A DNA stretch of 64,000 nucleotides, from contig OZ241907.1 of the NCBI GenBank assembly GCA_965203515.1, forward strand, positions 989,730 through 1,053,729, in the 5' to 3' direction. Made by a program: the position numbers and the translations under genes. Positions 32 through 43,379 of this stretch are shown piece by piece. Under the pieces are notes generated by a model. That model saw nothing but the letters and a program-made list of their open reading frames with translations, ran no database searches and was not told the origin of the DNA. Positions within the stretch are counted from its first letter, which is position 1. Every line of letters begins with the position of its first letter. The stretch comes from Spirochaetia bacterium (GTDB lineage Bacteria; Spirochaetota; Spirochaetia; SZUA-6; Bin103).

Positions 32-751
32 ATGCCGACGGTCCTGATTCTCGCCGCCCTGGACGAGGAGGTGGAGGCGTTCCGCGGAGCGCACGAGCTG
101 ACGCCGGTCGAGGAGGGGACGCCCTTCGCCGCCTTCCGGTTCCGGGTGAGCGGCGCCGGCGCGGTGCTGATGCGCACCGGGGTCGGCAAGGCGTTCGCGG
201 CGATGGTGGCGCAGCGCGCGATCGACCGCGTGCGGCCCGACTACCTGATCGTCACCGGCATCGCCGGCAGCGTGCGCGACGGGCTGCAGCCGGGCGACGT
301 GGTGGTGGGCCGGGACTGCGTGCAGCACGACCTGGACGCCACGGCGCTGGGGTTCGAGCTGGGCCGGGTGCCGTACACCGAGCACCGCATCCTGCGCGCC
401 GACCCGCGGCTGGTGGAGCTGGCGCTGGCCGTGCCGGTGGCGGGCCGGCGCGTGGTGGCCGGCCGCATCCTGACCGGGGATCAGTTCATCAGCGATCCCG
501 ATGCCGCGCTGCGCGCACGGCTGCGCGGTCTGGACGGCGACGTGGTGGAGATGGAGGGCGCGGCGATCGCGCTGGTGGCGACCGTCAACCGCGTGCCGTT
601 CGTGATCGTCCGCTCGGTATCCGACCGGGCCGACGCCGCCGCGCCGTCCGACTTCGGCGCCTTCCTGCGCCGCGCGGCGGCAAACTCCCGCACCGTCTGC
701 GCGGGCCTCCTCGACCGGCTCGGCCGGCTGCCGCCGCCGGCTCAGCCGTGA
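32..751 (+). CDS. mtnN: 5'-methylthioadenosine/S-adenosylhomocysteine nucleosidase (PNP_UDP_1 family)
   Basis: 239 aa translation with the EMEGAA motif and overall MTA/SAH nucleosidase layout; ATG start with upstream SD-like GGT-AGG. Confidence 0.8.
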   Translation: MPTVLILAALDEEVEAFRGAHELTPVEEGTPFAAFRFRVSGAGAVLMRTGVGKAFAAMVAQRAIDRVRPDYLIVTGIAGSVRDGLQPGDVVVGRDCVQHDLDATALGFELGRVPYTEHRILRADPRLVELALAVPVAGRRVVAGRILTGDQFISDPDAALRARLRGLDGDVVEMEGAAIALVATVNRVPFVIVRSVSDRADAAAPSDFGAFLRRAAANSRTVCAGLLDRLGRLPPPAQP

Positions 752-1275
752 GCGACGAGGGAGGTGAAGGCAACGCGCTTCCCGATCGCGGAAACGACCC
801 GGATGCCCTTGTAATTCTCTACCTGCGGCGCCTCTTTCGCCCGTACCGGCTGCTTGTCCAGCCTTGAGCTGCTTCGTGCTCCGATCAGCGCGTACCGTGC
901 CCTTGCAGGCGATGTATCGGTCCGGAAGTGTACTGCGCACATCGTCTGGAGATAGCGCAAGATCGGTAACGACCGCCGCAGTTGCTCGTAGCCTTTGGTG
1001 CCATCGTGCAACGTCTGCTTGAGCTCCAGGAACAGTCCCCCGTCCCGCTTGTCATCGCGGAAGACGATCAGGTAGTCGCAGGCTTTTTTCCAGGGTCCAT
1101 CCTTGATGCCGGCAAGACTGCCGATCCGATTCAGGTCGATGACGATCGCGCCCTTCGGGAGGCCGGCGACGGTCACCCGCATGACGTTGGATTCTTCGAG
1201 TACGACTGCCCGTCCCGGAAGCGGAAGCACTACGGTCTTGTCGGCAAGAATCTGTTCGATGTGCTGCGCCAGCAC
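742..1275 (-). CDS. small partner protein of the upstream ATPase; possibly a TOPRIM-like RloB/DUF4276-type effector
   Basis: ORF immediately follows the ATPase stop (1278) on the same strand, with a GTG at 1275 (alternative ATG at 1182). Possible TOPRIM-like motifs: VVLEES (acidic) and DYLIVFRDD (DxD-like). Low-GC codon usage is shared with the ATPase. Start is uncertain. Confidence 0.4.
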   Translation of the reverse strand: MLAQHIEQILADKTVVLPLPGRAVVLEESNVMRVTVAGLPKGAIVIDLNRIGSLAGIKDGPWKKACDYLIVFRDDKRDGGLFLELKQTLHDGTKGYEQLRRSLPILRYLQTMCAVHFRTDTSPARARYALIGARSSSRLDKQPVRAKEAPQVENYKGIRVVSAIGKRVAFTSLVAHG

Positions 1276-1277
1276 CG

Positions 1278-2714
1278 CTATGCTTCGTCCGTCAGTCTTG
1301 ATGAAAGCGCGTTTGCCACCGTGTTGATCTCGTCGATGGTCTTGTCGAACACCGGCATGTCGATGCCGAACCGGTCGACGGTGCACTTCGTCAACCCGTT
1401 GTTCTCGGCCACGTATGCGCTGATCGACTCGGGCCGAAGCAAGTCATGAGGATGGTACTTGAACTCGCTCACCAATTTCTCCTTGTCTTCGAACGGCTGA
1501 CTCAACATGACGAGGTTGTTGAACTCCTTGATCAGATAGTCGCTGTGGGTGGTGATCAACACCTTCACGCCCGCATTCACGAATCGCGCCAGCAGCCGCG
1601 CCAGTCGTATCTGGTTCATGGTATCGAGATGACTCTCCGGCTCGTCGACGATGAGCAGATGGTTCTTCCGGACGACGTGTCTGAGGTAGAAGTAGAAGTC
1701 CGACAGTCCGCGCGCCGAAGACGAAGCGGCGTGCAGGGGAATGTTGAAGCTGCGGCCTCGTCCGCGCGACTTGGAAATGAACCTTATCTCGTCACCCGAA
1801 GTTCCGTAGTAGCCATCCATCATGTCCTTGACGTAATCGTAGAGCTTGTGCTCGTGAAGCTCGCCCTTGTCCCTTCGCCGCTCCGGAATGCTCCTGGTAT
1901 AGTCGATGTTGTCCTTGATCGGCATGGCGTACCGGCTGGTGGCTCGATCGATGACCAGAAATGGAGCGGCGCGTTCACGGTTCTTGTCATCGGCCATCTT
2001 CTGCAGCAGATCGACGAGTTGATTCTTGGTAAAATCGAGTTCCCGATAGAACAGCGAGATGCCAAAGCGTTCGGCCGACAGGATGAACGGATCAGGAAGC
2101 ATACCGGTGAGCAGAAACCCGACGTAGAGGTTGGCTGCGTAGTACTCAAGTCGGGAGCTCGCGGTCTTCGATCGATCCGCGTGGACGGTCCATGTTACGG
2201 TGCTGCCGTCGTACGCTATCGAAAGGCCGGTCGGTTCGTTCGACAGTCGGGCCGGAACGGCGCCGTTGCCTCCGCTGATCACTTCGATCGATGCATCTTT
2301 GAATTCGTCAGGTATGCTGAAAACCGCAGACATCGCTTGCTCCGAGAAATCGTCGCTCAGGCGTTGGAGAACTGCCGCCTGCTGTCGTGCGATCGTTTCT
2401 CGACTCAACGGGAATTCGGCGCTCCCGTCACGGACGAGCCGCTCGGCCGCTGGCCGAAGATCGGGGAACATTGCGGATCGTTCCTCGCCGAGCAGGAGGC
2501 TATGGGATTCCGACCAGCGCTTCCACATTTTCAGAAATCCGTACAGAGCATAGGCGACATAGGTCTTGCCGGTGTTGTTGCGTCCGGCGATGATCGTGAG
2601 GTCTCCAAGTTCCAGGTCCGCGGTTTTCACCGGTCCCAGATTCCGGAATCGAAACGTGAGCGGCGCCGGTCTGGGGTCGTTGATCCGATCCGTGGTTGAC
2701 GCTCGTACCATCAT
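1278..2714 (-). CDS. AAA_21/AAA_15-type ABC-like ATPase (OLD/RloA/AbiL-like family)
   Basis: Walker A GRNNTGKT near the N-terminus; Walker B plus D-loop LLIVDEPESHLD; TTHSDYLI H-motif near the C-terminus. Start ATG at 2714 (MMVRASTT). GC is clearly lower than the flanks. Confidence 0.75.
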   Translation of the reverse strand: MMVRASTTDRINDPRPAPLTFRFRNLGPVKTADLELGDLTIIAGRNNTGKTYVAYALYGFLKMWKRWSESHSLLLGEERSAMFPDLRPAAERLVRDGSAEFPLSRETIARQQAAVLQRLSDDFSEQAMSAVFSIPDEFKDASIEVISGGNGAVPARLSNEPTGLSIAYDGSTVTWTVHADRSKTASSRLEYYAANLYVGFLLTGMLPDPFILSAERFGISLFYRELDFTKNQLVDLLQKMADDKNRERAAPFLVIDRATSRYAMPIKDNIDYTRSIPERRRDKGELHEHKLYDYVKDMMDGYYGTSGDEIRFISKSRGRGRSFNIPLHAASSSARGLSDFYFYLRHVVRKNHLLIVDEPESHLDTMNQIRLARLLARFVNAGVKVLITTHSDYLIKEFNNLVMLSQPFEDKEKLVSEFKYHPHDLLRPESISAYVAENNGLTKCTVDRFGIDMPVFDKTIDEINTVANALSSRLTDEA

Positions 2715-2733
2715 CCGTACACTACCACATCGC

Positions 2734-3309
2734 ATGACGCGGGATGACGGTCCGCTTTCGGCGGCGGTGCGCGCGGTGATCCGCGACGTGGCCGACTTTC
2801 CGCGGCCGGGCATCATGTTCCGGGACATCACGCCGGTGTTCGGCGCGATCGGCCTGCCGTTGCGCATCGCGTCCTGGATGGCGGCCGCGTTCGCGGCCGA
2901 TCCCGGCGGCAGCGGCTGCGACGGCGGCGACCACCACATCGACGCGGTCGCCTGCGTGGAGGCGCGCGGCTTCATGCTCGGGCCGCTGGTGGCGCGTGAG
3001 CTGGGCGTGGGCCTGATCCCGGTGCGCAAGCCGAACAAGCTGCCGCGCGCGACGCTGCGTCAGGACTATGACCTGGAATACGGCACCGACGCGTTGGAGA
3101 TGCACGCCGACGCCTGCGGCGCGGGGCAGCGCGTTCTGCTGGTCGACGACGTGCTGGCCACCGGCGGCACCGCGGCGGCCGCCTGCCGGTTGATCCAGCG
3201 CGCCGGCGCCAGCGTGGCGGGCGCCGCGTTCCTGATCGAGCTGGACGGCCTGGACGGCGCTCGGCGGCTGCCGGCGCCCAGCCGCAGCCTGCTGGTGCTG
3301 CCGGCGTGA
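2734..3309 (+). CDS. apt: adenine phosphoribosyltransferase
   Basis: PRTase motif VLLVDDVLATGGTA and an Apt-like N-terminal region (FPRPGIMFRDITP); ATG at 2734. Confidence 0.8.
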   Translation: MTRDDGPLSAAVRAVIRDVADFPRPGIMFRDITPVFGAIGLPLRIASWMAAAFAADPGGSGCDGGDHHIDAVACVEARGFMLGPLVARELGVGLIPVRKPNKLPRATLRQDYDLEYGTDALEMHADACGAGQRVLLVDDVLATGGTAAAACRLIQRAGASVAGAAFLIELDGLDGARRLPAPSRSLLVLPA

Positions 3310-9486: not shown

Positions 9487-11196
9487 ATGCGTACCGTCCC
9501 CGAATCGCAGAAGTTCATCATCGCCGATCACAATACCGTCACGGCCGCGGAGCTGCCGCCCTGCCCAAATCCGCGCGGCTGGTACCATTCGGTCGCCGGC
9601 ATCAAGGATACCGCCGACGGTCTGGTCGCCACCTACCGCCTGTCCGATTCGCACACCGCGGTCTCTACGCACGTCATGGTCGCCCGCTCGCGCGACGGCG
9701 GCCGGACCTGGTCGGAGCACCGCTCCATCTCGCGCCGCAACGTCTGGGAGCACCATGCCTGCTGGGTCGCGCCGCAGCTCAGCCGGCTTGCCGACGGGCG
9801 GTTGGTGATCATCTGCGACGAGGGCCACCGGTCGAGCGGCGCCGACTGGCCGCCCCTCACCCGCTGGCAGCAGCGCCCGCCGCGCGGCATGGCCAATCAC
9901 CTGTTCTGGAGCGATGACGACGGCGCCACCTGGAGCGACCCGGTGCGGATCGACGACGTCGGCGGCGAACCGGGCTATGTCACCGAGCTCGGCGACGGCA
10001 CGCTGCTCTACACCCGCACGGAGTCGGCCCGGTTCGCGGCGATGGATGACCCGCCGGAGCACTGGGGGGACATCTACTATCGCAACCGGGCGGTCGCCTC
10101 CACCGACGGCGGCCGCACCTGGACGCCGCGGGCGCTGGTGGCGGACGGCCCCTACCATGGCGACTGCGAGGTCGGCACCGTGGAGGTCGAGCCCGGCCAT
10201 CTGCTGGCGCTCACCCGCATCGGCTTCTGCGGCGGCCGGCTGGGCCAACCCAGCCGCATCGTCCGCAGCCGGGACGGCGGCCGCACCTGGGGAACGCCGG
10301 AGCTTTCGCCGATCTACGGGCAGCGCACCGTGGTCCGCAGGCTCCGCTCCGGCAAGCTGCTGGTCACCTACCGCAACCGCTGGGGGACGCCGGCGAGCTG
10401 CGCGTTCCTGTGGGACCCGGCCGAGACGCTCGGCTTCGAGCCGACCTCGTACCTCATCGAGCGGGACCGCTGTCGCCTGGAGGACGGCGTGATGGCGTGC
10501 GCGACCGCCGGCGGCCGCCGGCGCGAGGTGGAGTTCTCGCTCTACCCGGCGATCACCTCCAAGGCCGAGGCGACCCTGGAGGTCGACCTCCGCCGCGAGC
10601 GCGGCCCCGGCGCCGTGCTGCTGTCGGCCGGCTTCGGCGTGCGGATCGAGGACGGCTGCGTGCGTCTGGTGAAGTTCGCGACCGGGCGGCACGAGACCGG
10701 CTCCCTGCAGGAGGCGCGCCCGTGGCAGGGACGCGGCGCGGTCCGCGCCGACCTCGACACCGGCGCGTTCCGCCGCTACCGCCTGGAACGCACCCCCGAC
10801 GCCTGCCGGCTCCTGGTCGACGGACAGGTCGTGCTGGCCAGCGACGACCCCGACCTGCGGCAGCGCGTGGTCCGCTTCGGCGCCGGCGGCGAGCTGACGT
10901 CGCGGTGGCGCCGCGCGCAGGCGCGGGTGCGCAACCCGGACGACTACTCGATCGACTGGAGCTGGGACGGCGCGCGCGGGTTTCCCGACCAGTTCCAGCG
11001 CGACCGCGTGGTCGTGCTCGACTACACCGCCGACTCCGGCTACGGCGACTGGACCCAGCTCGACGACGGCGCCATCGTGGCGGCCGACTACTCCAGCGCG
11101 GACTTCCGTACCATAAACGCGGGCGGCCCGCAGCCGGTGCTGAAGGCGTTCCGCCTGACCGAGGAGGAACTGGCGCCGGCCGGAGGATCGCCGTGA
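9487..11196 (+). CDS. BNR-repeat exo-alpha-sialidase-like glycoside hydrolase
   Basis: Four Asp-box/BNR motifs (SRDGGRTW, SDDDGATW, STDGGRTW, SRDGGRTWG); start ATG MRTVPESQ at 9487. Confidence 0.7.
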   Translation: MRTVPESQKFIIADHNTVTAAELPPCPNPRGWYHSVAGIKDTADGLVATYRLSDSHTAVSTHVMVARSRDGGRTWSEHRSISRRNVWEHHACWVAPQLSRLADGRLVIICDEGHRSSGADWPPLTRWQQRPPRGMANHLFWSDDDGATWSDPVRIDDVGGEPGYVTELGDGTLLYTRTESARFAAMDDPPEHWGDIYYRNRAVASTDGGRTWTPRALVADGPYHGDCEVGTVEVEPGHLLALTRIGFCGGRLGQPSRIVRSRDGGRTWGTPELSPIYGQRTVVRRLRSGKLLVTYRNRWGTPASCAFLWDPAETLGFEPTSYLIERDRCRLEDGVMACATAGGRRREVEFSLYPAITSKAEATLEVDLRRERGPGAVLLSAGFGVRIEDGCVRLVKFATGRHETGSLQEARPWQGRGAVRADLDTGAFRRYRLERTPDACRLLVDGQVVLASDDPDLRQRVVRFGAGGELTSRWRRAQARVRNPDDYSIDWSWDGARGFPDQFQRDRVVVLDYTADSGYGDWTQLDDGAIVAADYSSADFRTINAGGPQPVLKAFRLTEEELAPAGGSP

Positions 11197-12749: not shown

Positions 12750-14138
12750 TTACCGGTCTACGCTTTCGGCAGCAGGGCTGAACGGAACCGGCGTCTGCCG
12801 ATCCTCGCCGGGGCGGCCGAATCCGGCGCCGACGTGGCGGTAGCGGTGATGGGCGGCGCACAGCAGGCGGAGATTGTTCGGCTCGGCGGCGCCGCCGCGG
12901 GCATACGGCACGACGTGATCGATCTGCAGCAGGTGTTGGGAGCCGCAGCGGCGCCCGCTGGTGCCGTCCACGTAACGGCAGCGGCCCCGGTCGCGCCGCC
13001 AGACCTCGCGCTTGACCGCCGCCGGGATGGCGCGGCCGGTCACGCCGCCGGCCTTCGCTGCCGAAGTTTCGGTCCGCGCAGGCGGCGCAGCCCGCGCCAC
13101 GCCCGCCGTCGCAGCCTGCCGGCCGGGGCGCCGCGTCTTCGCCGCCGAAGTGGTGTCGCCCGCCGGCTTCGCTGCCGAAGTGTCCGGGCTGTCAGCGGCT
13201 TCGTCTCCCGGCTGCGCCGGTGCCTGAGCCGATACCTTCGCCGCCGAAGGAGCGGCGCGGTCCGCGCCGGCCTCCTGCTTCGCTGCCGAGGCAGCGCCGC
13301 GAGCCGAGGCCGCCTGCGTCTTCGGCGCCGAAGTTTGCTCGGCCCCTTTGGCCGGCGCGGCGCGCCGCCCGCGCGGCGGCCGGGCCGGGTCGTGGCGGTC
13401 GAGCCCTTCCCGCACCAGCCGCGCCATGAGCTGCCCCAACGTCAGGTGCGGGTCAACGTGAGACAGGAGCCCCTTGAGCCGCTCCAAGCCGCGCCGGCAC
13501 TCATCGCCGATGGCCGCCTTGAGTTCCCAGCGCCCGCCGCCCAGGGGCCGCACCCGATCCGCCGACGCCGCCAGCTCCGGGTCCACCTCGGCCAGCAACT
13601 GCATCACCTGCCGGCTGCTCTTGCCGGACGCCTGCTCCACCAGCTCCCGCCGCGCCTCCAGGTCCAGTACCGGCGCCGGCGCCGGCTTCCGCTCCGCCGG
13701 CCGCTCCGGCGCCGAGCCGTCCTGCGACCGAGCGGCAGCCCCGAACCCGGCCCGCGGCGCGCTTCGCGCCGCCCGTTCCTTCCTGCGCTCCTGCCGGTCG
13801 AAGGCGTTCTGCAACTGCGCGGCCGCGTTCAGCGTCATCGAGCCATTCCGCAGGCGCTCGCGCACGCCGTCGACGTCCGCGCAGAGCCGCATCGCCTTGA
13901 TGCGCCGCCACGCTGCGGCGTCGCTGTAACCCAGCTCGCGCACCGCGTAGTCGAACAGGCTGGAGAACCCGCGGCGCAGATACAGGCGGCGCTTATGAAT
14001 CTCGCGCAGGTGGTCGATCACGACCACTTCGAGATGGTGTTCGATGCCGGACAGTTCCTTGGTTCGCTCCAGCAAGCGGTCGTCTGAGAGGGCGGAAACG
14101 GTAGTGGTGACGGCCCCGTCGGAAGCACGATTGTACAT
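12750..14138 (-). CDS. HNH endonuclease with DUF222-like N-terminal domain (REP13E12-type)
   Basis: C-terminal HNH motif CRYVDG...CGSQHLLQIDHVVPYARGG...NLRLLCAAHH; N-terminal DUF222-like region; central low-complexity SAAK repeats. Confidence 0.7.
   Translation of the reverse strand: MYNRASDGAVTTTVSALSDDRLLERTKELSGIEHHLEVVVIDHLREIHKRRLYLRRGFSSLFDYAVRELGYSDAAAWRRIKAMRLCADVDGVRERLRNGSMTLNAAAQLQNAFDRQERRKERAARSAPRAGFGAAARSQDGSAPERPAERKPAPAPVLDLEARRELVEQASGKSSRQVMQLLAEVDPELAASADRVRPLGGGRWELKAAIGDECRRGLERLKGLLSHVDPHLTLGQLMARLVREGLDRHDPARPPRGRRAAPAKGAEQTSAPKTQAASARGAASAAKQEAGADRAAPSAAKVSAQAPAQPGDEAADSPDTSAAKPAGDTTSAAKTRRPGRQAATAGVARAAPPARTETSAAKAGGVTGRAIPAAVKREVWRRDRGRCRYVDGTSGRRCGSQHLLQIDHVVPYARGGAAEPNNLRLLCAAHHRYRHVGAGFGRPGEDRQTPVPFSPAAESVDR
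13055..13340. repeat. intragenic imperfect tandem repeats (GCYGCCGAAG units, encoding SAAK on the minus strand)
   Basis: At least six copies of GC(T/C)GCCGA(A/G)G spaced about 30-50 nt apart inside the HNH gene. Confidence 0.6.
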
Positions 14139-14652
14139 GACATAAGTATAACCATGGAAACTACTTGAGTCAAGTTATTCGGCCCGGAAGATGCCACCTG
14201 CGGGCGTGAATCGGCGGCGCATTTCCAAGCGGATAGGCTGGACGTTCCGTCAGATGCTACTGCCGAGAATGTCGCCGGCGTCGAGCGGCAGGCTTTCTTA
14301 CGGCCCCAGGCGGCCTCGTCGATCGCGTAGTCGAGGAGGAGGTCGCAGGCGGTGGAAACGTCGCTCCAGCCGCAGGCGTCGAGCACGGCGCGGTCCATGG
14401 TGGCGTGCAGCGGTACTCGTAGTACGCCTTTCCGGCGGCTTCGAGGGCGGGATCGGTATCAACAATTTGGAAGTGCGCCCCTTTCGGGGGTGGGCGGGAG
14501 CGGCCGGCGGCCCCGGCGAATCCGATACCGGCCCGTACCCTTGGCCTTGGCAGGAACGTCCAACCGCCGCCCGCGGCCGCTCGTGTGCGTACTCGGCGCG
14601 TCTTGTGTGGTAGATCGCTCTGACAGCGACCTGTGCAATCAGTCCGATGTGG

Positions 14653-15007
14653 TCAGGTCAAGTCGAATCTAGCCGGAGCCCACACGACTTCCGCCAGTCT
14701 TTGATACAGCTTCTGCCGTTTATCGATGGTCGACTTGCTGAACGTCGGTTCAGCCTCAAACTGGAGGTCGTGCTTCTCGATGAGTCGACGGAAACTCGGA
14801 TTATTTTCATACGCCAGCGGATGAAGCGACCGAGCTAACGGGTTCTGTCCATGGTAATGTTTTACCTTTGTCGGGGTACGGCATATCGCCATAGCTGGCG
14901 TTGAAGTCCTTGGGAAGCAATAGCAATGCTCCCAGTCTGTTTCGGTGTTCCTGGAATTCCGATTCGGTCTGAAATTCGGTTCGGTGTTGGTCAAAGTGGT
15001 CGGCCAA
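14653..15007 (-). pseudogene. frameshifted C-terminal remnant of a DUF1524 (GmrSD-like HNH) endonuclease
   Basis: Frame A (14807-15007) encodes HRNRLGALLLLPKDFNASYGDMPYPDK, a DUF1524-like HNH core. The continuation IDKRQKLYQRLAEVVW lies in another frame (14653-14806). N-terminal DUF262 part is absent; local GC is low. Confidence 0.4.
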
Positions 15008-24700: not shown

Positions 24701-26232
24701 GCGCGCGTCAGGTCGATCTCGTCGAAGCGGGAGCTCCGCTCCAGGCGGTCCTGGTAGTACTCGGCGATCCGGTGGATGTCGCGGCGGTCGAACGGGAAGT
24801 TGGGCGCCCGCTTGCGGCCCAGGCTTTCGTATTCGCGCAACGTCAGCAGCGGCCGGCCGAGGCGCGCCGCCTGCTTGTCGAGCAGGCGCAACGCCGCCTC
24901 CAGCAGGGCCGTCTGGTCGGCGAAGCGCGGCGCGTCCCCGTCGCGCACGCCGGCGGCGAACTCCTGCAGCGTCGCGATCGAGGTGCGGCGTTCGCGCACC
25001 GCGTCGAGCTTGGCGCCGAGCTCCAGGTTGCCCAACCGCACCAGGTACTCGGCCAGCTCGGCGCGCTCCCGCATGGTCGCCTGCGAGCGGACGAAGCGCT
25101 CGGCCAGCTCCGCGAAGCGCCGGCGGCTCACGGGCGGCTTGGCGCCCTTGATGATCGAGCGTATCTCCTCCCACACCAGCTCGGCGTCGTAGCGGTTGGC
25201 GCCCGGATGGTTGTGGAAGATGTCGCGGAACTCCCGCAGCCCGGCCGGCGGCTGCGCGGACGCCGGCCCGCCGGCGGAGAGGATCTCGCGCAGCAGCTCG
25301 GCGAAGGTGGCGAAGCGCGCCGCCTCCGGGGCCGCTTCCAGGTCGGTCGCCGTCACCAGGCCGCGGTAGATGCGCTCCGAGAAGCGCTTCAGGTGCGGGC
25401 TGCCGGTGACGAACAGGGCGCGCTCGCGGGCCGCCGCGGAGGCGGCGGCGGGGATGCCGGCGTCCGGGCCGTCACCGTCCGCGGCGCCGGCGAGCTGGCG
25501 GGCGCGGTGGCGCAGCAGGTAGTAGACGGCGATGGTCGTCTTGCCGCTGCCGGCGGTTCCCGACAGCAGCACCGGCGGCTCGCTGTGCAGCAGGCGCGCC
25601 TGCTCGCCGGTCAGGAAGAGGTAGAGTTGCACGCCGTCGGGGTCTGCGGCGGCCAGCAGCCGGCGCCATTCTTCGTCGTCGACGACCAGCCAGCGCTGCG
25701 GCCCGGCGTCCGGCGCGTCGCCGTCCGGGGCGCCGCCGGCGCGGGCGGTGGCCGGTGCGGTGGAGAACGGGCGCTCGATCGCCGCGCCCAGGTGCTCGTC
25801 GGGCAGGTCGTCCAGGATCAGGTCCGGGACCTCTTCGGCCTGGTCGGCGTGGAAGTCCAGGAACGGCGCGTTGGCGGCGACGATGCGGCGCTCGGCCGCG
25901 GTGACGTCGTCGTGCTTGACCACGCCCCAGACGTAGATGCGGGTCGCGCCGGCGCCGCCGGCAGGGCCGCCGGGCGCGGCGGCGGCGGGCGGGCGCCCCA
26001 GCGTGAACAGGATGCGGTCGCCGCGCGTCAGCCGCGCCTCGAAGACGGAGCGCCCGCCCCTGAGCTTCTTGACGCGGACGCCGATGTCCCACATGCCGTG
26101 CCGCAGGAATTCCAGCTTCTCGCGCAGGCGCTCCTTCTGGCGGCTGCCGAGCGAGGCGAGGTGCGATCGGACCGCGTCGTGGAGGAGCAGGAGGTATTGT
26201 CGTTGCTGCATGAGTGGACGGCGCCGCGCCAT
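21793..26232 (-). CDS. large multidomain protein: RelE/ParE-like N-terminal domain, UvrD-like SF1 helicase core and C-terminal alpha-solenoid (TPR-like, about 19-aa) repeats
   Basis: N-terminus (KKLRGGRSVFEARLTRGDRILFTLG...TRIYVWGVVKHDDV) aligns by eye to RelE/ParE toxins. Helicase motifs: Walker A GTAGSGKTT; motif II VCDEVQDFT; motif III GDPKQII; motif IV NFRS; motif V/VI KGLEFDAV and VAVTRAR. C-terminal 740 aa are repetitive xxAGxxxxAAxxFxRAG units. The 1489-aa ORF on the opposite strand is a GC shadow. Confidence 0.8.
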   Translation of the reverse strand: MARRRPLMQQRQYLLLLHDAVRSHLASLGSRQKERLREKLEFLRHGMWDIGVRVKKLRGGRSVFEARLTRGDRILFTLGRPPAAAAPGGPAGGAGATRIYVWGVVKHDDVTAAERRIVAANAPFLDFHADQAEEVPDLILDDLPDEHLGAAIERPFSTAPATARAGGAPDGDAPDAGPQRWLVVDDEEWRRLLAAADPDGVQLYLFLTGEQARLLHSEPPVLLSGTAGSGKTTIAVYYLLRHRARQLAGAADGDGPDAGIPAAASAAARERALFVTGSPHLKRFSERIYRGLVTATDLEAAPEAARFATFAELLREILSAGGPASAQPPAGLREFRDIFHNHPGANRYDAELVWEEIRSIIKGAKPPVSRRRFAELAERFVRSQATMRERAELAEYLVRLGNLELGAKLDAVRERRTSIATLQEFAAGVRDGDAPRFADQTALLEAALRLLDKQAARLGRPLLTLREYESLGRKRAPNFPFDRRDIHRIAEYYQDRLERSSRFDEIDLTRAALQRLEQDDDRFRYDLVVCDEVQDFTDVQLALLFRLAADPLRTVLAGDPKQIINPSGFRWEEVRARYYERGLRVPEVINLSVNFRSVGNIVALANELLALKRSLVGLAGGEIAERWTFRGRPPLLVDGVSEPELLRAMRRAGAGQVVLVRTPAERDRLRAELRTELVFTINDAKGLEFDAVLLWRFTESDGSAARWRRIAQERRHADADAPHVRHEINLLYVAVTRARNTLVIWDGPDAGPVWTIGGLAEHVFRSGDPQALATLWQRVSSPAEWELQGDYFFDREHFAAAEECYRNAAAPAREELARAHRLEREGDHRAAADLFAGRGYPARAAENLERGEAFREAARAWRRAGDERRALTCDARHFEADGRYVKAAARWRQLGDEQRMVRNWERAGEHRLLAEHYLSRDRRADAARHLKLAGDHAAAAVQFRRAGLPEEAAHEFERAGQHHKAVPLYRRLKDDHALLRCLLRSEAYYEAGLLFEKLDNLDRAIECFRTYVGRAERNRADLERRLAAISPKRPGIKAAVRLAALGRTEAAARIFERRQGQLPRAIELYRQAGAHAPAAACLGRVGRYREAAQEIARTGDPDLQKKEIDYLCAYVFHAWEGRPERIEQLNRAGRRLRAAGEHERALAHFLALELVIGGPARGAPYVDDVCGEYARLERHEEAIRFFLRHGYADRASAYLDARPDLVLPLDELERLARARDGSLEGLWNQSDAYLEIVVRLLHAGLYRGDEVDRRERVAGILASQPRYASMTIPLFDELCEMLIDLRLLNQIVLIMTRHIANDPDDEQWRRASFAERLARAIEETGDPELQLCGLIGELDELDARLHDVTPTAGNYLLFARSPTHYRTAAEVLRELGDVHEAASVCRLHDDHGRAGRLLEEAGELRDAARTFRDAGHFDDARRCCQAAGDEIGLARVYEREGRHHDALAIWRRRDRKRDVARVTRKIEQLSLIADPPPDR

Positions 26233-26310
26233 CGTACCCCATCCGGCGGGGTGGGTGCGTCACCCCCAGTGGACCGGACCGAGCGCCTTGACGCTTGACG
26301 TCCGCCGTCA

Positions 26311-26619
26311 ATGCTCGCCAAGCTGGGGGCCGTCGTGATTCTTGGATACCGGGACAAGCGAACCGAGCGGTTCGCCTCCGGAGAACGGGTCCCGGCGTTC
26401 CAGGAATTCGAGAGGCAGGCGGCGAAGCGACTGGCGATCCTGGACGCGGCACCGTCATTGGACACGTTGAGAGCGTTGCCAAGCAATCGTCTGGAAGCCC
26501 TCAAAGGGGATAGACAAGGGCAGTACGCGATTCGGGTAAACCTGCAATGGCGTATCTGCTTCTCATGGCCCACGAGCAGTCAGGGTCCGATCGATGTCGA
26601 AATCATCGACTATCATTAG
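26311..26619 (+). CDS. higB: HigB toxin (RelE/ParE superfamily plasmid-maintenance killer protein)
   Basis: RLEALKGDRQGQYAIRVNLQWRICFSW...VEIIDYH matches the HigB consensus; precedes higA. A GTG at about 26335 is an alternative start. Confidence 0.8.
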   Translation: MLAKLGAVVILGYRDKRTERFASGERVPAFQEFERQAAKRLAILDAAPSLDTLRALPSNRLEALKGDRQGQYAIRVNLQWRICFSWPTSSQGPIDVEIIDYH

Positions 26620-26678
26620 GAGAGCGAGGTGTAGCAATGTGATACGTAACTGAGCAGCAGCTTATGAACTTTGTCTAA

Positions 26679-26993
26679 ATGGAGATGAGAATGTTTAAGA
26701 GAGCCGTTCATCCTGGAGAGGTTCTGCGAGACGAGCTCGCGGAAATGGGAGTGAGCCGGACCACCTTTGCGCGCGAAATCGCCGTGCCGCCGAATCGTGT
26801 CGGACAGATCATCGCCGGAAAGCGTTCCGTGACGGGGGACACTGCCTTGCGATTCGGGCATTGGTTCGGAGTCGATCCTCAATTCTGGCTGAATCTGCAG
26901 GCTCAGTTCGACTTGGTGACCGCCGATCAGCGAGTCGGAGCGGTCATCCGGGAGCTGCCCACCGCAGACCGAGTCGAGACCGGGTATGAATGA
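26679..26993 (+). CDS. higA: HigA antitoxin (XRE-family HTH)
   Basis: VHPGEVLRDEL...GDTALRFGHWFGVDPQFWLNLQAQFDL is a near-textbook HigA. Confidence 0.85.
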   Translation: MEMRMFKRAVHPGEVLRDELAEMGVSRTTFAREIAVPPNRVGQIIAGKRSVTGDTALRFGHWFGVDPQFWLNLQAQFDLVTADQRVGAVIRELPTADRVETGYE

Positions 26994-26999
26994 ACCCGC

Positions 27000-27974
27000 T
27001 CAACGTTGATCGATCGTCTCGGCTCGCGTGAAGTTCATGTACCTGCCGGACGAAATCCGGCGCGCCCGCTGGCGACCGGTGACGCCGAGCGCGGCCCGCG
27101 TCGCCTCGTCGTCCAGACCGCCATGGCCGATCAAGGCGCGGGCGGCGGCAAGGCTGATCGGCGCTCGCCAGATCGGCCAAGTGAAGGAGAAGGCGCCGTG
27201 ATCCCGGGAGCCGCCGAGTAGCTCCAATCGAATGTCCGGTCCCCTCCGACGCGGCGTCACGGTCAAGACGGACAGACCGACCGCGGCGAGTCGGTTGGCG
27301 CCGTGCTGGGTGGTCTCCTTGGTCTTCGCGTCGGTCGGATCGGTCGCGCGAAGTGCGTGGCGCACGTCCTCATGCGGGTCCCAGCGAAACGACTGCGTCG
27401 CATCCAACCGTTCCCACGGGAGGAACAGCGCTTCGCGAAGGCACTCGCCTTCCGTGATCGCGACCTTGGAGCGGCCCGTGCCTCGGGCAGGAGGCGTCCG
27501 TTCCTGCAGCACGGAGCCCAACCGTTCCAGGAAGTGTTGGCGACCTTGGCCGAACAACAGACACAGCGGCGTCGGTTCCGCTTCCTGTTGCTTGTCCCGA
27601 TCGCGAATCGCGGCGTCACTCACCAGTGCCGCCCACAGGTCGGCGGCATAGCGATCATCGCGGGACGCGCGGAGCTTTCCGGCGGCGTCCTCCGGCGACA
27701 ACTTCAAGTCCTTGACCGGTTCGAAGCGATGCCGGCCAGCCAGTTCCGCCAGCCCGGCCGCTACGGCCGTCACGATCGAATCTTCCGACACCGGCTGAGC
27801 CACGTGCAGCACCGGCCGCACCGGCGGGTCGTCGACAGTCCACGAGACTCGCGGCAGCCACGACGGCTCGGCTTCTTCGAGAACCCGCAGCAGCCCCAGC
27901 AGCGCCATGAAGGCGAGCAGATTGTCCGGCTCGAGGCCGCTCAGACGGTGGCGTATCTCTGCGTTCATTGCCAT
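27000..27974 (-). CDS. CRISPR-associated protein, putative Cas8u-like large subunit (Csb3/Cas8u1-type; tentative)
   Basis: Last gene of the effector operon; its ATG shares one base with the cas3 stop (TGATG). About 324 aa with no family recognisable by eye. Assignment rests on position and the gene order csb1-csb2-cas3-csb3 recalled for type I-U/I-G variants. Confidence 0.4.
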   Translation of the reverse strand: MAMNAEIRHRLSGLEPDNLLAFMALLGLLRVLEEAEPSWLPRVSWTVDDPPVRPVLHVAQPVSEDSIVTAVAAGLAELAGRHRFEPVKDLKLSPEDAAGKLRASRDDRYAADLWAALVSDAAIRDRDKQQEAEPTPLCLLFGQGRQHFLERLGSVLQERTPPARGTGRSKVAITEGECLREALFLPWERLDATQSFRWDPHEDVRHALRATDPTDAKTKETTQHGANRLAAVGLSVLTVTPRRRGPDIRLELLGGSRDHGAFSFTWPIWRAPISLAAARALIGHGGLDDEATRAALGVTGRQRARRISSGRYMNFTRAETIDQR

Positions 27975-32454: not shown

Positions 32455-33674
32455 TCTTCTTCGTCGCGACCCGCGCCTTCGAGCGCCAGCTCGCGGCTGC
32501 GCCGAACGATTTCGACCAGCTTGGGCTGTGGAGTCAGCGTGAGCGACCGGAAGCCAAAGCCGGCCTTCTCGGCATTCCGGTACGATTCGAGATACAGCTC
32601 CCGCGCCTCCGCCCGGTCCAACTCGATCGTCTCCGTGGTACCGTCGGCGTGCACTACCTCCAACGGGGCGGCTCCATCGCACACAAGGTCGCAACGGGAA
32701 CGCAACGCGTAACCGTACGCATCCTGTTCGCAGAGCGCTACCAGACCGAGCGCGGCGAGCAGCGCCCGCCCGGCGGTATCGCGAGTGCCACCGCCGAACC
32801 GCAACCGTCTCAGCCCGGCCAGCGTGATCACTGCCCGGTGCTCGGCATAGGCACAGGTCACGCCAAGAGGCTGAATGGAAGGTGCGATATTGCTGTGATT
32901 GATCTCGGAAGGGCGGACCTTCTTGGCGCCTTTGCCGGCACCGCCTTGTTCCGTACTCCAGCCTGCTGGTCCCTTGAACACTTCGACTTTGCGGAGAACG
33001 CCTAGCGGATCGATGCGGCTGCCGGTACGCCGGCCAGCGTTCCGAGGCTCCGTTGTCCGGGCTTGTGGGTCCATTTCGACTTCTACCGGAGTGTCCACCC
33101 CGATGATCTCCGAGACGAGCGCACGCGGGAACTTGGCGCCAAGTCCGCCTCCTTCACCCTGGCTGTGCCATGCGCCGAAGATCAGCGCCGTCGGGGACAG
33201 CTCGAGCAATGCGGTCGCGTCAGCCGGCTTCGCCGCGGCGAGGCGGCGGCCCTGCTCGCTCTGCATGAACGGTACACCGTCCAGGAAGCTGTCACGCAGA
33301 ATCGCGTCGTACACGCGGTGCGGCGCCTCCAGTGAGGTGATCCGCTCCAGCGGATGCAGGCCGGCATCGCTGAAGTCCACGGTGACGTACGGCAGAGGCA
33401 GTGCGTCTCCGTCAGTGGCGGCACTCAGCAGCGCCTCTTCGAGTCGATTTGCCTGGCTCTGGACACTGTCGATCAGAACGCACCACACGTCCTTGCCATC
33501 GTTCCGCCGACGTTCGAACACGTGGCGCGGTGGGTCTCTGTGCTGTTCACCGGGATAGGTTGGCGGAAAGATCTTGTCGCCGACGCCGCCAGCGGGCTGC
33601 AGACGCCGGATCCGGCGGATGGCAGCATGGCTGGAGATGGCGTCATTCAGTATCGAGATGGAACTCATAGTCAC
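32451..33674 (-). CDS. csb1: Cas7 (Csb1 family) backbone protein of type I-G Cascade
   Basis: N-terminal RLQPAGGVGDKIFPPTYPG is Csb1-like; 407 aa. GTG start at 33674; alternative ATG at 33668. Confidence 0.7.
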   Translation of the reverse strand: MTMSSISILNDAISSHAAIRRIRRLQPAGGVGDKIFPPTYPGEQHRDPPRHVFERRRNDGKDVWCVLIDSVQSQANRLEEALLSAATDGDALPLPYVTVDFSDAGLHPLERITSLEAPHRVYDAILRDSFLDGVPFMQSEQGRRLAAAKPADATALLELSPTALIFGAWHSQGEGGGLGAKFPRALVSEIIGVDTPVEVEMDPQARTTEPRNAGRRTGSRIDPLGVLRKVEVFKGPAGWSTEQGGAGKGAKKVRPSEINHSNIAPSIQPLGVTCAYAEHRAVITLAGLRRLRFGGGTRDTAGRALLAALGLVALCEQDAYGYALRSRCDLVCDGAAPLEVVHADGTTETIELDRAEARELYLESYRNAEKAGFGFRSLTLTPQPKLVEIVRRSRELALEGAGRDEEE

Positions 33675-34460
33675 TCCTGTCTTTGGTCTTCGATCTGAAG
33701 ATCGTCGTCATCCCGTGGGGATGGGTCGTCGAATCCGAACGTGTCGTGTATTTCATGATACTCTCCACGAAACCATGACGTCAACTCTGAACGCCCCGAA
33801 GGGTAGTTACGTATTTCCTTTCGACCGCTTATGATACGCATCTTACGTTCACGATGAATGCGCTTGGTCATCTGCTGTGCCTCCAAATGGATGATTTTGC
33901 TCTGCAAGGATACTCGAAAATACAAGGAGACGAGGCCGGAGTCAAGTGTGGACTCCGGAAAGGAACGGCCGTCTCGGCCGCTCTGCAAGGGTACTCCCTT
34001 TAATCAGGCCCCAGCCCCGATCATGGTGGAGCCGGGGGGCCTCCCAAGATACTGCCTCAAGTCAGCGGTGACAACCTTCGTGCATCGCTGCTGCATCGAG
34101 GGGCCTGCTGAGAAGCCGGTCTTCGCGCTCAAGCTCTGATCCTGCGAGCGGCGCGGCCGGGCGATCCTCCATCGAGCCTGCTCGTGCTCGCCGCGGATCG
34201 GGCCGCGGCGCAGTGATGTGTCGCTGTGGTGTCAAGCACGCTTGCTCAAGGTCGCCGTCCGGTGCAGCCGAACATTGAAGAAGGCAGCCTATCCCGTGGG
34301 GACGAACGGCAGGCACAACGTGGGGCAGGAACCGGTTCCCTCCGATCGGAACCGGGCGGCGGACCGCGCGGGTCCGCGTGCCGACCCCCACCTGAAGCAA
34401 GGGGAGTGCTCATCTTCTCCCGCCGCCGCGCCGGAGGACCGCCCGCTGATTCCGGCGCGC

Positions 34461-36610: not shown

Positions 36611-39600
36611 GTTTCCGGGGGAGAAATCCCCCGGCCTCATTGAAGCGAGTCGAAGCGCGGGCCGGACGGCGAGCCATGGCAGCCGGTTTCCGGGGGAGAA
36701 ATCCCCCGGCCTCATTGAAGCATTTTCTTCGTGACCGAAGAAAAATGGAAGTCCTTTTCGTTTCCGGGGGAGAAATCCCCCGGCCTCATTGAAGCGGACC
36801 CGCAGGCGGCGCAGCGCTCCTGAGACACGAGGTGTTTCCGGGGGAGAAATCCCCCGGCCTCATTGAAGCGCCACCGCGTCGACCAGCACCTGCAGATCCT
36901 CGGGCGGAGTTTCCGGGGGAGAAATCCCCCGGCCTCATTGAAGCGCCCAGACCTGTAGCGGAGACCCGTCAGCCATGCGCACCTGTTTCCGGGGGAGAAA
37001 TCCCCCGGCCTCATTGAAGCAACGTGGTCGAAGTCTGCGACTCGACCTGGCTGCGGTAAGTTTCCGGGGGAGAAATCCCCCGGCCTCATTGAAGCCAGCT
37101 CCGCAAAGGAGCCGCAGAGCTCGGGACATCGTTGTTTCCGGGGGAGAAATCCCCCGGCCTCATTGAAGCTCTCGTCGTATCGGGCCCGCCGTGCCGTCCA
37201 TTTGTCGTGTTTCCGGGGGAGAAATCCCCCGGCCTCATTGAAGCGAGACTCGAGCGGGCGGACGCGCTGGCTCCCCCCCGGCGGTTTCCGGGGGAGAAAT
37301 CCCCCGGCCTCATTGAAGCAAGAATCTTGTCAAGTATTGCTTTGGTGTATGACTTCGCTGCGGGTTTCCGGGGGAGAAATCCCCCGGCCTCATTGAAGCG
37401 GCAGGTGCTGCAGTCACGTCTGGTGCTCTGATCTGTTTCCGGGGGAGAAATCCCCCGGCCTCATTGAAGCGGTCGACTCCGGGTCCTCCCAGCGTGTGTC
37501 GAGATAGGTTTCCGGGGGAGAAATCCCCCGGCCTCATTGAAGCAGATTATCCGGCGTCAGCTCGTCGCGGCTGCTGCACGCGTTTCCGGGGGAGAAATCC
37601 CCCGGCCTCATTGAAGCGATGAGTGCATAGCACGATGGACGCGGACGGCCAATCGGTTTCCGGGGGAGAAATCCCCCGGCCTCATTGAAGCGGGTACAGC
37701 GTCAACCGAGCCCAACACGTGTTGGGTAGTTTCCGGGGGAGAAATCCCCCGGCCTCATTGAAGCATTCAACCCTCCTACCTTGAGTATACGGAATACCTG
37801 GGGTTTCCGGGGGAGAAATCCCCCGGCCTCATTGAAGCACAAGGCTCAGACCGGCCAGGACAATGCCGGCATGGGAAGTTTCCGGGGGAGAAATCCCCCG
37901 GCCTCATTGAAGCGTGGACGGAATGGCAGACGATCGGGGCGCAGCGAAGGGGGGGCGTTTCCGGGGGAGAAATCCCCCGGCCTCATTGAAGCACCTTCTT
38001 GGCGCCCCAGCCCTTCGCGGCCAGCTCCGGGTTTCCGGGGGAGAAATCCCCCGGCCTCATTGAAGCACGCTCCACCTCCGGCTGCCGCTGCGCCCGGTGC
38101 TCCGCGCGTTTCCGGGGGAGAAATCCCCCGGCCTCATTGAAGCGCCTCGACCATCTTGTCCTGCCAGGCGGATACTCCAGTTTCCGGGGGAGAAATCCCC
38201 CGGCCTCATTGAAGCCTGGCGGTGGACTACCTGTTCAACCCGATCCCAGACGTTTCCGGGGGAGAAATCCCCCGGCCTCATTGAAGCGACCCGTTATTAT
38301 CTGATTCCACCCACAGGCCAAGGGTGTTTCCGGGGGAGAAATCCCCCGGCCTCATTGAAGCCCAATCTTGCGTTGCGCTTGGTGGAGCGAGGTCTCATTG
38401 AGTTTCCGGGGGAGAAATCCCCCGGCCTCATTGAAGCATGACCAGTACAGGCGGACAATATCGATTCGTTCAGCTAGGTTTCCGGGGGAGAAATCCCCCG
38501 GCCTCATTGAAGCAGATGTTCGGCGGTGATGCGGCGGACGTGCTCGGTACGGCGGTTTCCGGGGGAGAAATCCCCCGGCCTCATTGAAGCGTATTATGGC
38601 GTGCGCACCGTTGCAGCAATTGACGTCTCAGTTTCCGGGGGAGAAATCCCCCGGCCTCATTGAAGCTACCACTGCAGATCGGTGACGGCAGCGGCCATCA
38701 GCGCGTTTCCGGGGGAGAAATCCCCCGGCCTCATTGAAGCATGTTCAGCGCGCCGTTGTCCGTGATATTCCAGAGCAGTTTCCGGGGGAGAAATCCCCCG
38801 GCCTCATTGAAGCTGGCAGATGGCCGTGTCCAGTACAGAGAAGCTGGGTTTCCGGGGGAGAAATCCCCCGGCCTCATTGAAGCATAACGTTACCAACGTT
38901 TTTTTCGTGATCGGAGTTGACTGTTTCCGGGGGAGAAATCCCCCGGCCTCATTGAAGCAGCCGGCGTAGGTCTCGCCGTCGTCAAAGGTGACGGTGTTTC
39001 CGGGGGAGAAATCCCCCGGCCTCATTGAAGCTCAAGTAGTTTGCGGTATTTCTGACAGGCTGTTCAGGTTTCCGGGGGAGAAATCCCCCGGCCTCATTGA
39101 AGCGACAAGTAGTATGGATGCCATCGAAGACGGCATATCCATGTTTCCGGGGGAGAAATCCCCCGGCCTCATTGAAGCCTGGACGTGCTGACCGGCGACC
39201 CGGACCTGCCGCACCTGCAGTTTCCGGGGGAGAAATCCCCCGGCCTCATTGAAGCTTTTCGTGATTTTCCCGAAAAGAATTTGCATCCGGGGGTTTCCGG
39301 GGGAGAAATCCCCCGGCCTCATTGAAGCTGGCGCGTGAGCAATAATTCGGCGCAGAATTTCAAGGTTTCCGGGGGAGAAATCCCCCGGCCTCATTGAAGC
39401 ACGGACGGCCGACCACAAGCCCACGCTACTAGAGTGGTATGTTTCCGGGGGAGAAATCCCCCGGCCTCATTGAAGCAGCAGCCCGAAGACGCCCTCGTCG
39501 ATGTGCGACATCGCCGTTTCCGGGGGAGAAATCCCCCGGCCTCATTGAAGCGCGTAGGCGATCGTCGTCGAGATCGACGCGATCTTGCCTGTTTCCGGGG

Positions 39601-40676
39601 GAGAAATCCCCCGGCCTCATTGAAGCGCCTTGTCGCCCTTGGCCTTGTCGCCGTCCGCAGACCCCTGCAAGTTTCCGGGGGAGAAATCCCCCGGCCTCAT
39701 TGAAGCGCGGCCGACCTTCCGGCCCTCCTGGAAGAGCTTGTTGAGTTTCCGGGGGAGAAATCCCCCGGCCTCATTGAAGCGCGGCGATCGGCGTGTCGTC
39801 GTCGAGCGAGGCCAAAGGGGTTTCCGGGGGAGAAATCCCCCGGCCTCATTGAAGCAGAGGAATCAACTTTATAGACCAAAGGAGAAACAGAAGTTTCCGG
39901 GGGAGAAATCCCCCGGCCTCATTGAAGCGAGGCCAGGCGGCAGCCGTCACGAACATCAACCAAGGCGCGTTTCCGGGGGAGAAATCCCCCGGCCTCATTG
40001 AAGCTTACGCACGAAGGCTGATTTGTCAGTCGGGGAGCCGGGTTTCCGGGGGAGAAATCCCCCGGCCTCATTGAAGCGGAGACGGTCAAGGGTAGGAGCC
40101 GCCCGTAGCCCGGTACGGTTTCCGGGGGAGAAATCCCCCGGCCTCATTGAAGCACACAAACGGTGAAAAGTGATAGGATGACAGTATGAGTTTCCGGGGG
40201 AGAAATCCCCCGGCCTCATTGAAGCAAGGCTGACGGAACGCAGGGGCACAGCTTGTTCAATGCGTTTCCGGGGGAGAAATCCCCCGGCCTCATTGAAGCC
40301 TGAATGCCTCTGCTGCACGTTGACGAAGTTTCCGAGTTTCCGGGGGAGAAATCCCCCGGCCTCATTGAAGCGTCGGCCGTCGGCCGTCCACGCCGGCGGC
40401 GTGCTGCTAGTTTCCGGGGGAGAAATCCCCCGGCCTCATTGAAGCGTCGCCGCCTGCGACGTGGAGTTGACCGACGACGGCACGGACGTTTCCGGGGGAG
40501 AAATCCCCCGGCCTCATTGAAGCGTCAACGTGCGCGGCGGACACGAGCTCGTAGGCCTGTTTCCGGGGGAGAAATCCCCCGGCCTCATTGAAGCAACAAA
40601 TACGACGAGACGAACGGAGCCCCGATCTTCGGGATCGACAGTTTCCGGGGGAGAAATCCCCCGGCCTCATTGAAGC
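36611..40676 (+). CRISPR. CRISPR array, leader-proximal part: about 55 repeats of GTTTCCGGGGGAGAAATCCCCCGGCCTCATTGAAGC (36 nt)
   Basis: Perfect 36-nt repeats with 35-45 nt unique spacers (period about 72-76). The repeat has an internal hairpin CCGGGGGA-GAAA-TCCCCCGG and ends ATTGAAGC. Confidence 0.97.
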
Positions 40677-43361: not shown

Positions 43362-43379
43362 AGACCCAACAATGATTGG

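Follow-up and report, generated by a model that had tools for sequence, protein, structure and literature searches.

The window analysed here is a 64,000-nt stretch of contig OZ241907.1 from a Spirochaetia bacterium (assembly GCA_965203515.1, forward-strand positions 989,730 to 1,053,729). Near its start, a low-GC island separates mtnN, encoding 5'-methylthioadenosine/S-adenosylhomocysteine nucleosidase, from apt, encoding adenine phosphoribosyltransferase. The island encodes an ATP-binding cassette (ABC) ATPase, referred to below as component A, and a small partner, component B. We consider it very likely that these two genes form an anti-phage defence operon of the PD-T4-4/PDC-M47 group, related to WonAB. 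The island is real, well delimited, horizontally derived and fairly ordinary; its family has already been described, and its sub-branch, PDC-M47, is experimentally unvalidated.

The proteins were first compared with profile collections. In PADLOC, component A matched PD-T4-4_A (PDLC04033) with an E value of 5e-105 (350 bits). This alignment was full length, from residue 20 to residue 470 of the 478 residues of A and from position 2 to position 454 of the 460 positions of the profile. PDC-M47A was matched with an E value of 1.4e-85. The Pfam matches of A were AAA_15 (3.6e-19) and AAA_21 (2e-13), NCBIfam gave only sub-threshold matches to ABC-transporter ATPases, and in PHROGs A matched phrog_13167, a family with no function assigned there. 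All the motifs of A are intact, namely, GRNNTGKT (K50), SAERFG (R216), ASSSARG, LLIVDEPESHLD (D357/E358) and TTHSD (H390), and the key residues for ATP binding and hydrolysis (K50, R216, D357/E358 and H390) are invariant across ten aligned homologues. According to the alignment of homologues, the C terminus of A consists of the ABC core with no further domain beyond it. Component A is an OLD-type ABC ATPase, with a predicted role as sensor or regulator. An AbiEii or type IV toxin-antitoxin identity was rejected, as AAA_21 reflects the ABC ATPase fold only and neither Pfam nor PADLOC revealed an AbiEi/AbiEii-type partner.

Component B matched PDC-M47B on three PADLOC profiles (E values of 1.2e-7, 1.3e-6 and 4e-6). 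It had no match in Pfam at an E value of ≤1, none in NCBIfam and no family in PHROGs; neither Pfam nor PADLOC gave an HNH match, and PADLOC gave no AriB, GajB or TOPRIM-containing model. A profile of the B family was built from the first 15 homologues and run against 1.84 billion proteins. It recovered 569 representative clusters at an E value of ≤1e-3, with 316 of them at ≤1e-10, and nearly all members were about 180 aa long. In an alignment of 128 family members, D67, K86 and Q98 of B were invariant, and C66, Y68 and E84 were at least 90% conserved; the signature of B is D-x16-E-x-K. PDC-M47B was matched by 93 of these 128 proteins and PD-T4-4_B by 35 (the latter at an E value of ≤1e-3). An AlphaFold model of B made with a deep alignment had a predicted local distance difference test (pLDDT) score of 93.5 and a predicted template modelling (pTM) score of 0.90. 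In this model, D67 lies at the start of the strand from residue 68 to 73, E84 and K86 lie within the strand from residue 78 to 88, and Q98 lies in the next helix. This strand(D)-strand(ExK)-helix order is the one expected for a PD-(D/E)xK core. Therefore, B fits a predicted divergent PD-(D/E)xK nuclease effector in its motif, its modelled topology and its homology.

An earlier reading of this DNA, made without database searches (the sequence-only reading), had seen possible TOPRIM-like acidic motifs in the partner. The partner has no Pfam match at an E value of ≤1, and its conserved acidic residues belong instead to a D...ExK signature of the restriction endonuclease type; TOPRIM, DUF4276, RloB and DUF4435 identities of B were rejected on the same ground. 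The same reading had concluded that the partner is not PtuB-like, and this held, as no HNH motif was found. It had also recognised the layout of a defence system composed of an ATPase and a small effector, which we retain, and had likened the pair to OLD, PARIS and Septu systems, which the PADLOC profiles replace with PD-T4-4/PDC-M47. The variant that it described as not assignable by eye can thus be assigned by profiles to the PD-T4-4/PDC-M47 group, with WonAB as a relative.

The link to PD-T4-4 could also be followed through individual proteins. A tblastn search with A recovered PD-T4-4-type pairs on a 4.8-kb Escherichia coli Col plasmid, on a Bernardetia plasmid and on a P2-like Vibrio phage, where the pair is located between the repressor and integrase genes. 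In PADLOC, the A proteins of these pairs matched PD-T4-4_A with E values from 2e-99 to 6e-185, and their B proteins matched PD-T4-4_B with E values from 1e-43 to 1e-12; for two of the three pairs carrying these B proteins, the A match was in the range from 3e-123 to 6e-185. When the B-family profile was compared with these three B proteins by hhalign, probabilities of 93-96.6% and E values from 7e-10 to 3.5e-7 were obtained. The alignment covered the N-terminal region and the CD...(E/D)LK...Q core.

The two components are also kept together. In every examined locus with upstream DNA, B was found directly 3' of an AAA_15/AAA_21 ATPase of 471-489 aa. Within the clade, this was the case at five loci (L001, L002, L004, L005 and L006), and the short contigs L003 and L007 show the same two genes. 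Four distant contigs (L088, L090, L091 and L093), in which B is 32-43% identical to that of the window, have the same pairing among unrelated neighbours. In all, the pairing of the small gene with the ATPase gene was counted at eight loci, which stand for at least six different neighbourhoods. The two proteins diverge in step, A being 59-52% identical where B is 43-32% identical. The ratio of nonsynonymous to synonymous substitution rates (dN/dS) was 0.24-0.37 for A and 0.36-0.58 for B, and it was 0.23-0.32 for mtnN/apt. These values indicate that both A and B are under purifying selection.

The positions of the genes and motifs are collected in the table below. The sequence-only reading had placed a two-gene pair between mtnN and apt, and both flanks were confirmed by NCBIfam above cut-off, with 187 bits for mtnN against NF004079 (cut-off of 169) and 193 bits for apt against NF002636 (cut-off of 125). 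The features that it had named in the ABC-like ATPase, the Walker A motif GRNNTGKT and TTHSD, together with the 2-nt gap to the partner, can all be read in the sequence. Its description of the strand had to be corrected: both island genes are co-directional on the minus strand, with A followed by B. The B gene, 2 nt downstream of A, is translationally coupled to it, and its 3' end overlaps the mtnN stop codon by 10 nt. For the partner, a length of 145-178 aa had been given. We retained the 177-aa form starting at a GTG and not the 146-aa form because the homologues are 175-186 aa long and begin with MLAQH. The reported GC contrast, about 50% against about 70%, proved real with other figures, 58% against about 75%. 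Measured values were 58.2% for the island, 75.4% for mtnN and 74.5% for apt, and the GC content at third codon positions was 0.74-0.75 for the A/B pair versus 0.94-0.95 for the flanking genes. The GC profile is not uniform along the window, and the island is its lowest-GC 2-kb stretch. Only 0.07% of the windows of equal size had a GC content as low as that of the island, and every one of them overlapped it.

Table. Features of the island and its flanks in the window (residue numbers refer to A or B as indicated)
Feature	Position	Strand	Remark
mtnN, left flank	32-751	+	Pfam PNP_UDP_1, 3.6e-46
Low-GC island at the mtnN/apt junction	752-2733		58.2% GC
Component B, 177 aa	GTG 1275, stop 744-742	-	Open reading frame (ORF) reading
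Q98 of B	984-982	-	Invariant in the family alignment
Predicted catalytic core of B	1018-1077	-	D67 1077-1075, E84 1026-1024, K86 1020-1018
Component A, ABC ATPase, 478 aa	ATG 2714, stop 1280-1278	-	ORF reading
H-loop of A, TTHSD, residues 388-392 (H390)	1539-1553	-	T388, T389, H390, S391 and D392 invariant
Walker B/D-loop start of A, LLIVDEPE, residues 353-360	1635-1658	-	D357, E358, P359 and E360 invariant
Mosaic tract of A, residues ~38-240, between Walker A and Q-loop	2000-2600	-	Divergence versus L001/L002
Walker A of A, GRNNTGKT, residues 44-51 (K50)	2562-2585	-	G44, N46, K50 and T51 invariant
Sigma-70-like site, TTGACG-16-TACACT	2696-2723	+	Within the island edge; the apt ATG follows 11 nt downstream
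Spacer between the divergent starts of A and apt	2715-2733		19 bp; same in L001 and L002
apt, right flank	2734-3309	+	Pfam Pribosyltran

We then examined the mtnN-apt junction in related genomes. A search with mtnN among species-representative genomes gave 13 close loci, all from Spirochaetia bacterium metagenome-assembled genomes (MAGs) on contigs or chromosomes of 1.4-7.8 Mb. In L011 (OZ253561), the junction is empty: nothing lies between the two genes, and the end of mtnN runs 8 nt into the start of apt (ATGGGTGA, positions 10700-10711). Because of this overlap at an empty site, mtnN-apt is an ancestrally translationally coupled operon, which the island split in the window. In L019, a gap of 175 bp without cargo separates the two genes. 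At the junction of other relatives, there are 1.4-5.1 kb of cargo with a GC content of 55-67%, compared with 70-74% in the adjoining mtnN. This cargo includes NsnB-like ABC ATPases (L008, L009 and L012), a PDC-S27-like protein (L008), an McrB/REase_II-like AAA protein (L013), a 385-aa AAA_16-like protein (L009 and L012) and a 187-aa ATPase stub (L010). In L004 (mtnN 89-90% identical), the same site holds the pair itself beside a truncated AAA_16 gene; in L005 and L008, the pair and an N6/N4 DNA methyltransferase gene lie at the opposite side of mtnN. The mtnN-apt site is a defence hotspot because it is either empty or occupied by other ATPase-based defence cargo in related MAGs.

Since relatives carry diverged copies at this locus or next to it, the island is not a recent arrival and the hotspot is long-lived. 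Between lineages, the pair is 63-77% identical in amino acid sequence and the flanking proteins are 84-91% identical, and the GC content of the pair was 58.5-58.9% in all three relatives checked. The horizontal acquisition of a defence pair, as put forward in the sequence-only reading, is therefore borne out by the PADLOC profiles, the conserved pairing and the comparison with empty sites, though the acquisition is not recent. No convincing direct repeats were found at the island flanks, the best being an 11-nt match at chance level. There is no tRNA in the window and no integrase or transposase gene in or beside the island. Site-specific integration was rejected on the lack of repeats, tRNA, integrase and transposase. 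Given that no integrase, att repeat or tRNA is present, homologous recombination through the flanks, which are conserved, is the probable route of cargo exchange. At the edge of the island, the sigma-70-like site was the sole match of the scan, against 0.6 expected by chance. We regard it as a lead, a possible replacement promoter for apt.

Several further arrangements were seen at these loci. In L005, the pair stands between mtnN and an E1 dehydrogenase gene, not between mtnN and apt. In L006 (2330-6258), as in L005 (5492-9933), the pair and an N6/N4 methyltransferase remnant have a full mtnN on one side and an mtnN fragment of 123 aa on the other. The full gene and the fragment are in direct orientation, a pattern expected from a single crossover via mtnN homology. 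One alternative cargo recurs in the hotspot: an AAA_16-like protein of 385 aa, a small protein of 104-157 aa and an NsnB-like ABC ATPase of 413-464 aa (L009, 11491-14512; L012, 10728-15585, interrupted there by a long ORF of about 690 aa; L004, 8633-9415). No PADLOC model was matched by the AAA_16-like and small proteins of this cargo, and the three genes may represent an undescribed system. Finally, a single genome (OZ242313.1) contains two mtnN paralogues, L015 and L018, which are 67% and 69% identical to that of the window and stand in contexts without apt.

Component A shows a mosaic pattern among close strains. L001 and L002 have flanks about 99% identical to those of the window. When the window was compared with these two loci, 19-25 differences per 200 nt were found in the tract from 2000 to 2600, versus 0-7 elsewhere in the locus. 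For residues 38-240 of A, which the tract encodes, dN was 0.079 and dS was 0.204 (dN/dS of about 0.39); for residues 241-478, dN was 0.011 and dS was 0.032. The divergence of the tract is thus 6-7 times that of the rest, for dN and dS alike. Because dN and dS rise together, the result suggests that the insert region of A was swapped by recombination and was not shaped by point-mutational positive selection.

How the pair might work can be proposed by analogy with its homologue WonAB. Neither gene of WonAB is dispensable, nor are the residues of the ATPase motifs or the lysine of the nuclease. Toxicity of WonB is seen only alongside active WonA, and Lon degrades WonB. Upon activation of WonAB, translation stops while DNA remains intact, which suggests an RNA target, and the infection is aborted (PMC12137116). 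In the window's pair, A would dimerise and form composite ATP sites. It would bind B and sense an infection cue, probably via the variable insert that separates Walker A from the Q-loop. ATP binding or hydrolysis would then license nucleic acid cleavage by B, the target possibly being an RNA of the translation machinery, and the infection would be halted at the expense of the growth of the infected cell, that is, abortively. For this organism, we infer the trigger, the substrate, the abortive rather than direct action and the expression of the pair from that homologue.

The same family could also act differently, through direct, nonabortive cleavage of phage DNA instead of a WonAB-like shut-off of translation. 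We give this version an appreciable chance, somewhat below even. Among the systems with putative PD-(D/E)xK-like components studied by Vassallo et al., 7 of 11 gave direct immunity (PMC9519451), and a preprint places PD-T4-4 among DNA-cleaving nuclease-NTPase systems (10.1101/2025.07.10.664194). However, WonAB, the sole relative dissected mechanistically, spares DNA and blocks translation. The sequence of the window does not discriminate between DNA and RNA substrates.

Several observations weigh against the assignment to a working PD-T4-4/WonAB-type system. Component A is only 26-31% identical to the plasmid and phage proteins that match PD-T4-4_A with the E values given above (2e-99 to 6e-185), and the direct match of B to PD-T4-4_B was marginal, with E values of 0.0066-0.017 over the core only. 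A Foldseek search with the model of B against PDB and the viral structures of BFVD gave nothing at an E value of ≤1e-3, with TM-scores of 0.2-0.3, and a profile search of PDB sequences with the B family gave nothing meaningful. Since there was no significant structural match, the nuclease fold of B is supported by motif, topology and homology. The weak Foldseek matches were mostly to restriction-fold nucleases (BamHI, FokI, N.BspD6I, PfoI, Bse634I, DdmD, HamA, Upx, Mrr-like, VRR-NUC and UL24). A promoter scan of the minus strand upstream of A gave no promoter-like site, and with a spacer of only 19 bp upstream of A, the expression of the pair is presumed. In the literature searched, PDC-M47 was mentioned in no paper, and no experiment on the window's pair or its sub-branch was found.

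The compact layout raises the question of whether the pair has become a remnant, decaying or silent and squeezed between housekeeping genes with no room for a promoter. In addition to the missing promoter-like site, the spacer to apt is 19 bp compared with 268 bp in L004, the end of B overlaps the mtnN stop codon, and fragments of other systems, such as the ATPase stub in L010 and the truncated AAA_16 gene in L004, are found in the hotspot. We nevertheless judge such a remnant unlikely. Both ORFs are full length for their families with all catalytic motifs intact, dN/dS is 0.24-0.58, and the same compact arrangement is found in at least three independent metagenome contigs; moreover, consensus promoter scans are unreliable at a genome GC content of about 70%. 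A function in housekeeping or repair, for example, a RecF/SMC-like ATPase with a repair nuclease, appears very improbable. It could draw on a weak Pfam match of A to SMC_N (4.3e-5, below cut-off) and on ABC motifs common to RecF, RecN and SbcC. Yet the pair is patchily distributed in close relatives (the site is empty in L011 and L019), its composition is foreign, and its site holds other defence-type cargo elsewhere. Small Col plasmids carry kin of the pair, as does a P2-like phage in its immunity-integrase region. No housekeeping family matches the pair, and no NCBIfam housekeeping model reaches its cut-off.

Least probable of all is that the pair is of the OLD, Gabija or PARIS type, with B as a TOPRIM (or DUF4435/RloB-like) nuclease. 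Component A has secondary PADLOC matches to AriA (9e-20), GajA, Old and ATPase-Toprim_I-B, and an OLD-type core is common to all of these. But the matches are confined to this shared ABC core, and they fall short of those to PD-T4-4_A and PDC-M47A by 65-85 orders of magnitude. The matches of A to PtuA, likewise limited to the core, fall below the 25 best-scoring PADLOC models listed, the weakest of which has an E value of 1.2e-6. The profile results for B described above do not point to this type either, and its residues are D...ExK...Q, not the E...DxD of TOPRIM. OLD, Gabija and PARIS were rejected since no TOPRIM or DUF4435 domain was found in B or beyond the core of A, and Septu was rejected since B has no HNH domain in Pfam or PADLOC.

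Within the PD-T4-4/PDC-M47 assignment that we favour, the PDC-M47 branch could be a functionally distinct arm of the PD-T4-4/WonAB superfamily, marked by swapping of the sensor insert and by a tie between apt and the cargo. We hold this to be rather improbable, with slightly better prospects than a remnant. If it were true, B might have a substrate or trigger of its own, because no solved or viral structure was significantly similar to it. The insert of A is swapped between near-identical strains, as would be expected of a sensor that determines specificity. Also, apt might rely on a promoter at the edge of the island, and a housekeeping gene would then be bound up with the retention of defence cargo.

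The pair, for which homology, motif integrity, conserved pairing and accessory status were shown, extends PD-T4-4/WonAB-type defence by an ABC ATPase and a nuclease to an uncultured, high-GC Spirochaetia lineage. The PADLOC candidate PDC-M47 is thereby clearly connected, in evolutionary terms, with a validated system. The mtnN-apt hotspot could guide the discovery of neighbouring cargo, for example, the AAA_16 385-aa and 157-aa genes beside the NsnB-like ATPase. Existing knowledge of how such systems work is left unchanged by this locus.

Elsewhere in the window, three other 1-kb bins (14001-15000, 26001-27000 and 33001-34000) had a GC content of 0.59-0.62, where the background is about 0.70-0.75. 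Two large arrays of clustered regularly interspaced short palindromic repeats (CRISPR) are located on the plus strand at 36611-40676 and 43379-46096. Their repeats, of 36-37 nt in about 55 and about 36 copies, match Rfam CRISPR-DR16, and a 321-aa ORF (40787-41752) lies between the arrays. The second low-GC stretch of the window (36.4-41 kb) is accounted for by CRISPR arrays; an rRNA operon was rejected as its cause.

Among known systems, PD-T4-4 is the closest validated point of comparison. It was found by Vassallo et al. in 2022 through functional selection against T4, in an element of E. coli ECOR58 resembling an integrative and conjugative element (ICE), and the text of that study is silent on abortive versus direct action (PMC9519451). 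The nuclease-NTPase preprint includes it among the systems with PD-(D/E)xK and P-loop components that form higher-order complexes (10.1101/2025.07.10.664194). Like PD-T4-4, the window's pair is an accessory operon of two genes in which B directly follows A. In both, A is an ABC ATPase of the OLD type, about 460-480 aa long, to which PD-T4-4_A aligns end to end, and B is small, with a CD...(E/D)LK...Q core of the type predicted to be PD-(D/E)xK. Unlike the PD-T4-4_A-matching proteins, from which it differs by its low identity, the window's A has an 18-aa N-terminal extension. Its B is shorter (177 aa versus 198-209 aa) and matches the PDC-M47B profiles better. PD-T4-4 pairs are carried by an ICE, plasmids and a prophage, whereas the window's pair resides in a chromosomal hotspot of a high-GC uncultured bacterium. 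Both components match the A and B profiles of PDC-M47, a "phage defence candidate" of PADLOC v2. As PDC-M47 is a computational candidate only and unvalidated, this membership is uninformative on mechanism.

WonAB was described by Adams et al. in 2025 from the WASA-1 prophage of Vibrio cholerae, and its authors call it related to PD-T4-4; they also report that inserts 1 and 2 and the C-terminal extension differ among such operons (PMC12137116). It is through this stated resemblance of WonAB to PD-T4-4 that we infer the kinship of the window's pair to WonAB. Both combine an OLD-type ABC ATPase with a small PD-(D/E)xK variant, predicted as such in the window, and the classes of essential residues are the same: the Walker A lysine, the Q-loop arginine, the Walker B glutamate, the H-loop histidine and the nuclease lysine. 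At 16 kDa, WonB is smaller than the window's B, and WonAB, unlike the window's pair, is prophage-borne and downstream of a regulator. OLD, Gabija (GajA), PARIS (AriA/AriB) and Septu (PtuA/PtuB) have in common with the pair an OLD-family ABC ATPase core and the logic of a sensor plus a nuclease. The effectors of OLD, GajA and AriB are of the TOPRIM type and that of PtuB is of the HNH type, whereas the predicted effector in the window is a separate protein of the PD-(D/E)xK type.

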